A DNA stretch of 64,000 bases from Escherichia coli. Lineage in GTDB: Bacteria; Pseudomonadota; Gammaproteobacteria; Enterobacterales; Enterobacteriaceae. The notes beneath the pieces were generated by a model. That model had not been told where the DNA came from, ran no database searches, and saw nothing but the letters and a program-made list of their open reading frames with translations. The DNA is taken from the NCBI RefSeq assembly GCF_046105845.1, contig NZ_CP151004.1; one strand, written 5' to 3'. The translations under genes were made by a program, and so were the position numbers. The first letter of the stretch is position 1; each line of letters opens with the position of its first letter. Of the stretch, positions 57,515 through 58,981 are shown one piece after another.

Positions 57515-57531
57515 TTGGAAAAATTTTCCAA
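57515..57531. promoter_or_regulatory. AllR operator in the gcl promoter region
   Basis: Perfect palindrome ttggaaaaattttccaa immediately upstream of gcl. Confidence 0.75.
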
Positions 57532-57551
57532 CTTTCAAATTTTGTCAAAAA

Positions 57552-57580
57552 ACCCCGCTCCGCAGAGCGGGATGCGACAG
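57552..57580 (-). terminator. Rho-independent terminator downstream of allR
   Basis: Minus-strand hairpin cccgctc-tgcg-gagcggg followed by a T-tract (plus strand aaaaaaccccgctccgcagagcggg). Confidence 0.6.
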
Positions 57581-57583
57581 ACA

Positions 57584-58399
57584 CTATGGATGTGCTTTCA
57601 GTCCCAACGCCGTGCTGATATCGCGGGCGGTGTCTCTGACCAGCTCACCCTGACTGACAAAACGATCTTCTGTCAGTCTTGATGAAGGCCCGGAGATGGA
57701 GATAGCGGCAACAACGCTACCTACATCATCGTAAATTGCTGAAGCTATGCAATTCAGACCGACAACATGCTCTTCTTTATCTACGGTATAGCCCAGTTCA
57801 CGCGCTTGTTCCAGGTCCTTCAGCAAGGTGGGCATATCCACAAGCGTCGTTGGCGTAAACTGCTGCAAACCGGTTTGCAGAATGATGCTCATCAACTCCT
57901 CTTCCGCCAGCGGATAAAGCAGCGCCTTGCCCGCACCGGAAGCATGCAGCGGCAGACGACTGCCCAGCGGCGCACACATCCTGACCATCGATTTACACTC
58001 CAACTGACCAATTAATACTGCTTCATTGCCGTTACGAATCGCGACATTGACCGTTTCGCCGGAAAGTAACATCAGGCGGCGCATAAACGGCCCGGCGACG
58101 GAGAGGACATCGCGGTTATGGATGTACGCCGCACCGACGTTAAAAACACCTAATCCTATATGCCACCAGCCTAACTGACTGTCCTGGTAGACAAAATCCG
58201 CTGCCTGTAAAACCTTCAGCAAGCGAAAGGTCGTGGAGAGCGGCAAATCCAGATTGAGAGAAATATCGCTAACCGACGAACTCCCCCCACTTTTTTCCAG
58301 ATATTGCAGAATCGCAATTCCCCGCTCTAACGCCTGTGCGCCCTTCTGTGCCACAGGCTCCGCCTGTCCTGGCCTGCCGCGCCGTCTAACTTCCGTCAT
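57584..58399 (-). CDS. allR: IclR-family repressor of the allantoin regulon AllR (271 aa)
   Basis: [39 protein letters not shown]... Confidence 0.93.
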
Positions 58400-58454
58400 A
58401 CCTACGTTAACTCCGACCTACAAGTGAGCATAAACAATGAACAATTAGTTTATC

Positions 58455-58859
58455 TTATGCAAGTCGGTTGCAGGCGAAAAGTGGGTGATGCCAGACGTTA
58501 CGATGGTAATTCACTCCCTGTTCGCCGTTGGTAATAAACGCCCGCAGAGTTGACAGGTCTGGTTTGTCGTCACCTAACGCCACGACCACCACAAACACTT
58601 CACCTTTCATCGGGATAAAGGCCTGAGTACCCAGCGGATGACGTTCGAGTTCGTGAATGGTCAGCGGCAGATTCGCCGGTTGCGCGCGGTTAATGCTGAT
58701 AAGCGTACGGTCTTGCTCAAGAATCTCAACCAGCGCCAAATCGTGGTAACGCTCCACCAGGCCATTGTTAATATGGAAAAAATCCCGTTGCTGCGTTTCG
58801 ATTACATCGCCATAAGCACTAAAGGCTTCCTGACTTAACGGTAATACCTGAAGTTTCAT
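58455..58859 (-). CDS. allA: Ureidoglycolate lyase AllA; ORF is 134 aa, about 26 residues shorter at the C-terminus than the ~160 aa I recall for K-12
   Basis: [53 protein letters not shown]...[14 protein letters not shown] then stop at 58455. Confidence 0.75.
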
Positions 58860-58964
58860 CTTTTTGTCCTTGTAACATAATTCCGTTCAACCACCGCCGA
58901 CCGGTCAGCTTGGTTTCAATAACAGGCAATCTAAAACCTTAAGAGAACAACATCAACACAAAAG

Positions 58965-58981
58965 TTGGAATATTTTTCCAA
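58965..58981. promoter_or_regulatory. AllR operator in the allA-allS divergent promoter region
   Basis: Palindrome ttggaatatttttccaa, same half-sites as the gcl operator. Confidence 0.7.

Follow-up and report, generated by a model that had tools for sequence, protein, structure and literature searches.

Two near-identical palindromes that flank allR and allA in Escherichia coli as operators of the AllR repressor

Which protein, if any, acts at two near-identical palindromes in the allantoin/glyoxylate region of Escherichia coli, and how much of the surrounding regulatory circuit do they disclose? The initial annotation of the 64,000-nucleotide stretch of DNA analyzed here (the window) had assigned them to the repressor AllR, describing perfect TTGGAA/TTCCAA half-sites with a 5-bp spacer, and a direct read of the sequence confirms this description at both sites. 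The letters at positions 57515-57531 are ttggaaaaattttccaa, and those at 58965-58981 are ttggaatatttttccaa. We record them as two strandless features, an AllR operator upstream of gcl (TTGGAAAAATTTTCCAA, positions -37 to -21 from the gcl ATG) and an AllR operator in the divergent control region of allS and allA (TTGGAATATTTTTCCAA). In both, the half-sites are perfect and the 5-bp spacer consists purely of A/T; the two 17-mers agree at 15 of 17 bases when read on the same strand and at 16 of 17 when one is reverse-complemented. The centers of the 6-bp half-sites are spaced by 11 bp, approximately one helical turn, so that both half-sites face the same side of the helix, the arrangement expected for a dimer of winged-helix domains. 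A scan of the whole window with the pattern TTGGAANNNNNTTCCAA (TTGGAA-N5-TTCCAA), a check that had been proposed together with the assignment, returned exactly these two matches, and 100 dinucleotide-preserving shuffles returned none (mean 0.00); the naive chance expectation for 12 fixed bases over 64 kb is ∼0.004. Allowing up to two mismatches added only two further matches, at 10217 and 16269, and the resulting total of four, compared with 3.03 expected by chance, is at chance level.

The gene names gcl, allR, allA, and allS agree with NCBIfam equivalog models and with the RefSeq annotation of homologous E. coli loci. The glyoxylate carboligase gene gcl, the first gene of the AllR-repressed gcl operon, lies on the minus strand at 55713-57494 (TIGR01504, 1282 bits, and homologous-locus annotation), with its true start at the ATG at 57494. 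On the same strand, allR (57584-58399) matches the AllR equivalog NF007548 over its full length with 619 bits and encodes an intact IclR-family repressor of 271 amino acids that shows no amino acid difference from K-12 AllR (100% identity), and allA (58455-58859), the gene for ureidoglycolate lyase, is truncated to 134 amino acids that cover profile positions 1-132 of 160. On the plus strand, allS (59089-60015; NF007501, 644 bits, full length) encodes the LysR-type activator that the literature assigns to the allD and allF operons. By the NCBIfam equivalog models, hyi and glxR follow gcl on its downstream side, and mnmH lies on the far side of allS. Of 5426 complete E. coli genomes, 5404 have the region, with matching annotation. 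The gcl-side palindrome lies in the 89-bp allR-gcl spacer, between the allR stop codon (57584) and the gcl ATG (57494). The other lies inside a 229-bp divergent intergenic region, with its center 114 nucleotides from the allA ATG and 116 nucleotides from the allS ATG, in agreement with its earlier placement between the divergent genes. The allA-allR pair is thus bracketed by the two palindromes, and the claim that they flank these genes follows directly from the gene positions.

Comparison with K-12 revealed few differences at either site. The allS-allA operator is identical to that of K-12, and the intergenic region around it differs at 1 base, outside the palindrome. Three bases of the allR-gcl spacer differ from K-12, and one of these is the unpaired base at the dyad center of the gcl operator (position 57523, T in the window and A in K-12), the sole difference in an operator whose half-sites and spacer length are identical in the two strains. 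Because this operator is palindromic, the central A/T swap only flips the strand that reads AAATT, and the variant is probably neutral for AllR. As a result of the same swap, the plus strand of the window at the gcl operator reads like the gcl-sense strand of K-12. A conserved inverted repeat was reportedly footprinted in both control regions by Rintoul in 2002.

The published AllR operators of K-12 (Rintoul et al. (2002) J. Mol. Biol. 324, 599) involve the same genes, positions, and AllR protein as those of the window. A comparative study of the IclR family gives the AllR motif as KTTGGAAWAWTWTTCCAAC, with attribution to Rintoul et al. 2002 (PMC8222616), and each window site fits it at 18 of 19 positions on the better strand. 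In a 2026 paper, AAATCTAGTTTTGGAAAAATATTCCAACTTTTGTATT, taken from the original description of the regulon, served as the AllR recognition site (PMC13300388). This 37-bp sequence corresponds to the K-12 allS-allA region and contains the allS-allA operator, and the window differs from it at a single base, outside the palindrome. A 2025 paper names as AllR targets the promoter of the gcl operon and the control region common to allS and allA (PMC12535856), and these are the two control regions into which our palindromes fall. The same work gives glyoxylate as the inducer and allantoin as the corepressor of AllR, and states that allD and allF are activated by AllS and have no AllR site (PMC12535856). 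Direct binding of AllR and its release by glyoxylate are cited as a K-12 result in three of these sources (PMC13300388, PMC12535856, and PMC8222616), and modeling of ChIP-seq data describes AllR as highly specific, with one or a few strong sites (PMC12059191).

AllR was used to scan one genome per species, which yielded 23 loci, 20 of them complete. The complete loci span ∼10 named genera with AllR identities of 66-91%, and the loci come from Superficieibacter, Klebsiella, Raoultella, Citrobacter, Buttiauxella, Izhakiella, Atlantibacter, Providencia, and unnamed Enterobacteriaceae. Exactly two sites with no more than one half-site mismatch were present per ∼12.8-kb locus in all 20 complete loci, always between allS and allA and between allR and gcl, and 36 of these 40 sites are exact, the other 4 carrying one half-site mismatch. 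The gcl operator is kept in place in 21 of the 21 orthologous loci that retain the gcl side, as is the allS-allA operator in 21 of the 21 that retain the allS-allA side, and two Escherichia loci that are cut at one end each contain the expected single site. No palindrome site was found at the locus of an AllR paralogue of 28% identity. In the alignments, the TTGGAA/TTCCAA columns are invariant, whereas the adjacent spacer and leader sequences drift. The eight named genera listed above share with the window both its synteny, with allS divergent from allA-allR-gcl, and the two operator positions, but vary in their spacer bases and flanking promoter sequences; by this cross-genus footprint, conservation of the two-operator layout extends from Escherichia to Providencia.

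A weight matrix was built from the orthologue sites only, with the Escherichia sites left out. It scored the gcl operator at 33.5 bits and the allS-allA operator at 32.1 bits; the next best match in the 64 kb reached 11.1 bits, and mononucleotide shuffles reach 13.7 bits. With this matrix, no auxiliary AllR site was detected beside either operator (best nearby score of 1.7 bits), and none was detected in the window at other promoters of the allantoin/glyoxylate (ALL) cluster (allD/allF, allB, and others), in agreement with the published account (PMC12535856). Because the window is collinear with a reference genome from argU through the entire ALL cluster, its scan reveals that no other ALL promoter has an AllR site.

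We consider it nearly certain that the two palindromes are AllR operators of the E. coli ALL cluster, and no observation speaks against this identification. The assignment draws on the palindromes themselves, the gene identities, the fit to the motif, and the cross-genus conservation, all computed here, with binding and effectors taken from the literature, and the initial annotation is supported on this point by the 18 of 19 motif positions, the containment in AAATCTAGTTTTGGAAAAATATTCCAACTTTTGTATT, the reported binding regions (PMC12535856), and the cross-genus footprint. The further statement that the palindromes define the regulon wiring stands for the direct targets of AllR (the gcl operon, allA, and allS), but not for the branch from AllS to allD and allF nor for the effectors, so the sites are better said to mark the direct targets of AllR. 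The sites, the repressor, and its effectors are already known, having been described between 2002 and 2008 (Rintoul 2002) and entered in standard databases. The result accordingly carries little weight as a discovery, and one of its smaller uses is as a positive control for recognizing true operators from raw sequence.

An AllR dimer would contact each 17-bp palindrome with the winged helix-turn-helix domains at its N termini. Read along the gcl strand, the allR stop codon is followed by a conserved hairpin, a U-tract, the hexamer TTGACA, and 11 bp of spacer, after which come the operator and then the Shine-Dalgarno sequence and start codon of gcl. TTGACA (57543-57548, minus strand) is the predicted -35 element of gcl from promoter scoring across orthologues and has two T's in common with the terminator U-tract. 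The most recurrent promoter, which was the top match in 11 of 22 sequences, combines a -10 element that starts at operator positions +4 to +7 with a TTGnnn hexamer located 15-18 bp upstream. A competing match at +32 or +33 runs into the start codon and therefore cannot serve gcl. The -10 element of gcl would most likely be the AT-rich core of the operator itself, with a 17-bp spacer from TTGACA, and AllR bound here would then cover both the -10 element and the start site, and could block RNA polymerase directly. According to the literature, AllR represses gcl, allA, and allS, glyoxylate frees it from the DNA and induces the genes, and allantoin tightens repression; the derepressed allS then activates allD and allF. 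To call this site part of the gcl promoter, as was done initially, is reasonable; its exact overlap with the promoter is predicted from the scoring. Cappable-seq data contain no transcription start site (TSS) entries near the site coordinates, and the tables of Kim 2012, which refer to non-inducing conditions, contain internal TSSs only, with none at the gcl, allA, or allS promoters. Such a lack of start sites under non-inducing conditions fits repression.

In the divergent region, one central operator would serve both allS and allA. The predicted allA promoter, TTGATG-17-TAGATT (58928-58956, minus strand), ranked first in 18 of 22 sequences with a constant offset (+47/+48), and both of its hexamers are conserved in the alignment. 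It places the operator center at about -52, with no overlap between promoter and operator. For allS the promoter scoring is split between a -10 element inside the operator, with its -35 element on the allA side, and one ∼48-59 bp downstream, where the conserved candidates are TATCAT and TGtAAAAAT. The latter (59018-59026, plus strand) lies in the conserved block ATGnAAAAATAC and is a tentative extended -10 element, one of several alternatives, which would place the operator center near -60. A second allA-directed arrangement, TTGTGG-17-TGgAAAAAT, is also conserved and has a TGTGG block as its -35 element and the operator as its extended -10 element. By the best-conserved predicted σ70 promoters, which do not overlap it, the allS-allA operator may thus lie at about -52 relative to allA and about -60 relative to allS, or it may overlap weaker promoters that have their -10 element inside it.

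The TGTGG block is part of a TGTGG-N6-ATCT motif on the allA-sense strand at ∼58985-59000 (plus strand AGATTTAGTCCACA), ∼13 bp from the allS-allA operator, that is nearly invariant across ∼10 named genera. It could be the -35 element (TTGTGG) of the allA-directed promoter or a site for another regulator. A role as an AllS site was rejected, as the block does not resemble the allD-allF region to which AllS binds. Neither NtrC nor Nac is reportedly needed for the response of allS to nitrogen limitation.

Given that the best-conserved allA promoter and one allS candidate place the operator at about -52 and -60, AllR might repress by means other than simple occlusion, either as a tetramer that loops the allA-allR segment between the two operators or from the position of an UP element. 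Walker reportedly found AllR to be a tetramer in 2006. Every locus contains two single-palindrome sites, 1541-1636 bp apart in the orthologues, 1550 bp in K-12, and 1450 bp in the window, where the shorter distance is due to a deletion in allA, and neither operator is adjoined by an auxiliary site. Set against this, the gcl operator plausibly lies over the -10 element, so that occlusion would be enough there; alternative promoters with the -10 element inside the allS-allA operator exist, such as TTGTGG-17-TGgAAAAAT; and the literature consulted contains no experimental hint of looping. We therefore regard looping or UP-element repression as an improbable, though not far-fetched, alternative to occlusion. 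For the allS-allA operator in particular, there is a small but appreciable chance that AllR competes with the α-CTD of RNA polymerase on an AT-rich, UP-like element or that a tetramer bridges both operators. Were looping to occur, the 100-bp deletion in allA would shrink the loop from 1550 to 1450 bp.

The identity of the bound protein is open to a different challenge, because the sequence alone does not assign the sites to AllR over its paralogue IclR, the repressor of the glyoxylate bypass, and context or experiment is needed. If IclR were the main occupant, AllR would not be the relevant protein at these palindromes, and the two families of sites are indeed alike: the TGGAA-N5-TTCCA core recurs in the IclR box TGGAAATNATTTCCA (PMC8222616), the consensus of this box has two mismatches to the gcl site and three to the allS-allA site, and AllR also matches the IclR equivalog profile with 248 bits, which indicates that the two DNA-binding domains are related. 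The regulators belong to the same family, and the IclR box, which occurs in the aceBAK and iclR promoters, shares the palindrome architecture and the AT-rich spacer of the AllR sites. The AllR sites differ, however, in needing the additional outer T/A and in continuing TGGAA with AA or TA rather than with the AT of the IclR box, and this outer T/A of TTGGAA/TTCCAA is kept without variation by every orthologous AllR site. The IclR consensus with three mismatches also fits five unrelated places in the window, and the K-12 target regions of IclR (the aceB and iclR promoters) do not exceed 2.7 bits with the AllR matrix, compared with 32-33 bits here. With two to three mismatches to TGGAAATNATTTCCA and an allR cluster rather than an aceBAK/iclR-type context, the sites do not belong with the IclR boxes. 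The regulons are distinct as well, that of IclR being the glyoxylate bypass and that of AllR being allantoin and glyoxylate carboligase. Finally, the sites always co-occur with and flank allR, and the literature assigns the binding to AllR, all of which makes predominant binding by IclR very unlikely.

Still less credence can be given to the view that the palindromes are chance occurrences or generic AT-rich promoter features, such as UP elements or -10-like sequences, without a dedicated regulator. As such a view would predict, the operator core consists solely of A/T and offers, in both orientations, -10-like hexamers and an extended -10-like string, TGnAAAAAT. The shuffles, however, did not yield even one match in 100 where the window has two, and across the ∼10 named genera it is the G/C-containing half-sites that are invariant and the AT-rich spacer that varies, the reverse of the pattern expected for a generic AT-tract. 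Each copy, moreover, adjoins the gene for its cognate regulator. We consider this explanation effectively refuted and retain the AllR operators as the identity of both sites.

The deletion in allA is an exact loss of 100 bp between two CAGGCG direct repeats, with the junction at 58471/58472 by alignment. The final ∼30 codons are thereby lost together with the stop codon, and the remaining 134-amino acid product has a new tail. The same junction is present in 2 of 5426 complete E. coli genomes, those of ET650 (from a frog) and OkiPb01685 (from bovine feces), and allA is annotated as a pseudogene in ET650. Its recurrence in two complete genomes led us to reject the possibility that it is an artefact. 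The truncated allA is probably inactive in this strain. AllA makes glyoxylate, the inducer of AllR, from ureidoglycolate, and its truncation could blunt allantoin-dependent induction in this strain.

The region between allR and gcl also carries the sRNA AllZ, a Northern-verified and Hfq-associated transcript (PMC8175672) made from the 3′ end and UTR of allR. In the window it corresponds to positions 57547-57781 on the minus strand, with 5 nucleotide differences from the K-12 noncoding RNA b4831 (533629-533863). It shares with allR an intrinsic terminator identified by a terminator scan (57547-57573, minus strand), consisting of a hairpin at 57573-57552 and a U-tract at 57552-57547, and both the hairpin and the T-run are conserved in most orthologues. 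The 3′ end of AllZ at 57547 is 15 nucleotides before the gcl operator, and its terminator overlaps the predicted -35 element of gcl. The TSS that Kim 2012 assigned to gcl, with a 284-nucleotide leader, coincides with the 5′ end of AllZ and not with a gcl promoter. A RutR site has been reported in the literature upstream of the gcl operon. The RutR box TTGACCANNTGGTCAA with up to three mismatches had no match near gcl (57400-57700), and the best resemblance found by eye, TTGACAAAATTTGAAA, overlaps the predicted -35 element and is not conserved in other genera.

Some observations concern the wider window and the sequences compared with it. Positions 1-26773 are not collinear with ETEC1738, the closest genome at the all locus, which has a lambdoid prophage beside argU; they match the chromosomal fepA-cus-nfrAB region instead, so the window is without a prophage at argU. 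The best identity to any complete E. coli genome is ∼98-99% over 12-25 kb, which suggests that the lineage of the window is poorly represented among complete E. coli genomes. In a megablast search, the 12 kb at 52000-64000 matched each E. coli genome at a median of 22 places, and this segment must therefore contain a short dispersed repeat (REP- or IS-like). The assembly CACSKA010000001.1, labeled "Chryseobacterium sp. 18061," has an allS-allA-allR-gcl locus of enterobacterial type that closely matches that of Citrobacter sp. 18056 and is probably mislabeled or contaminated.
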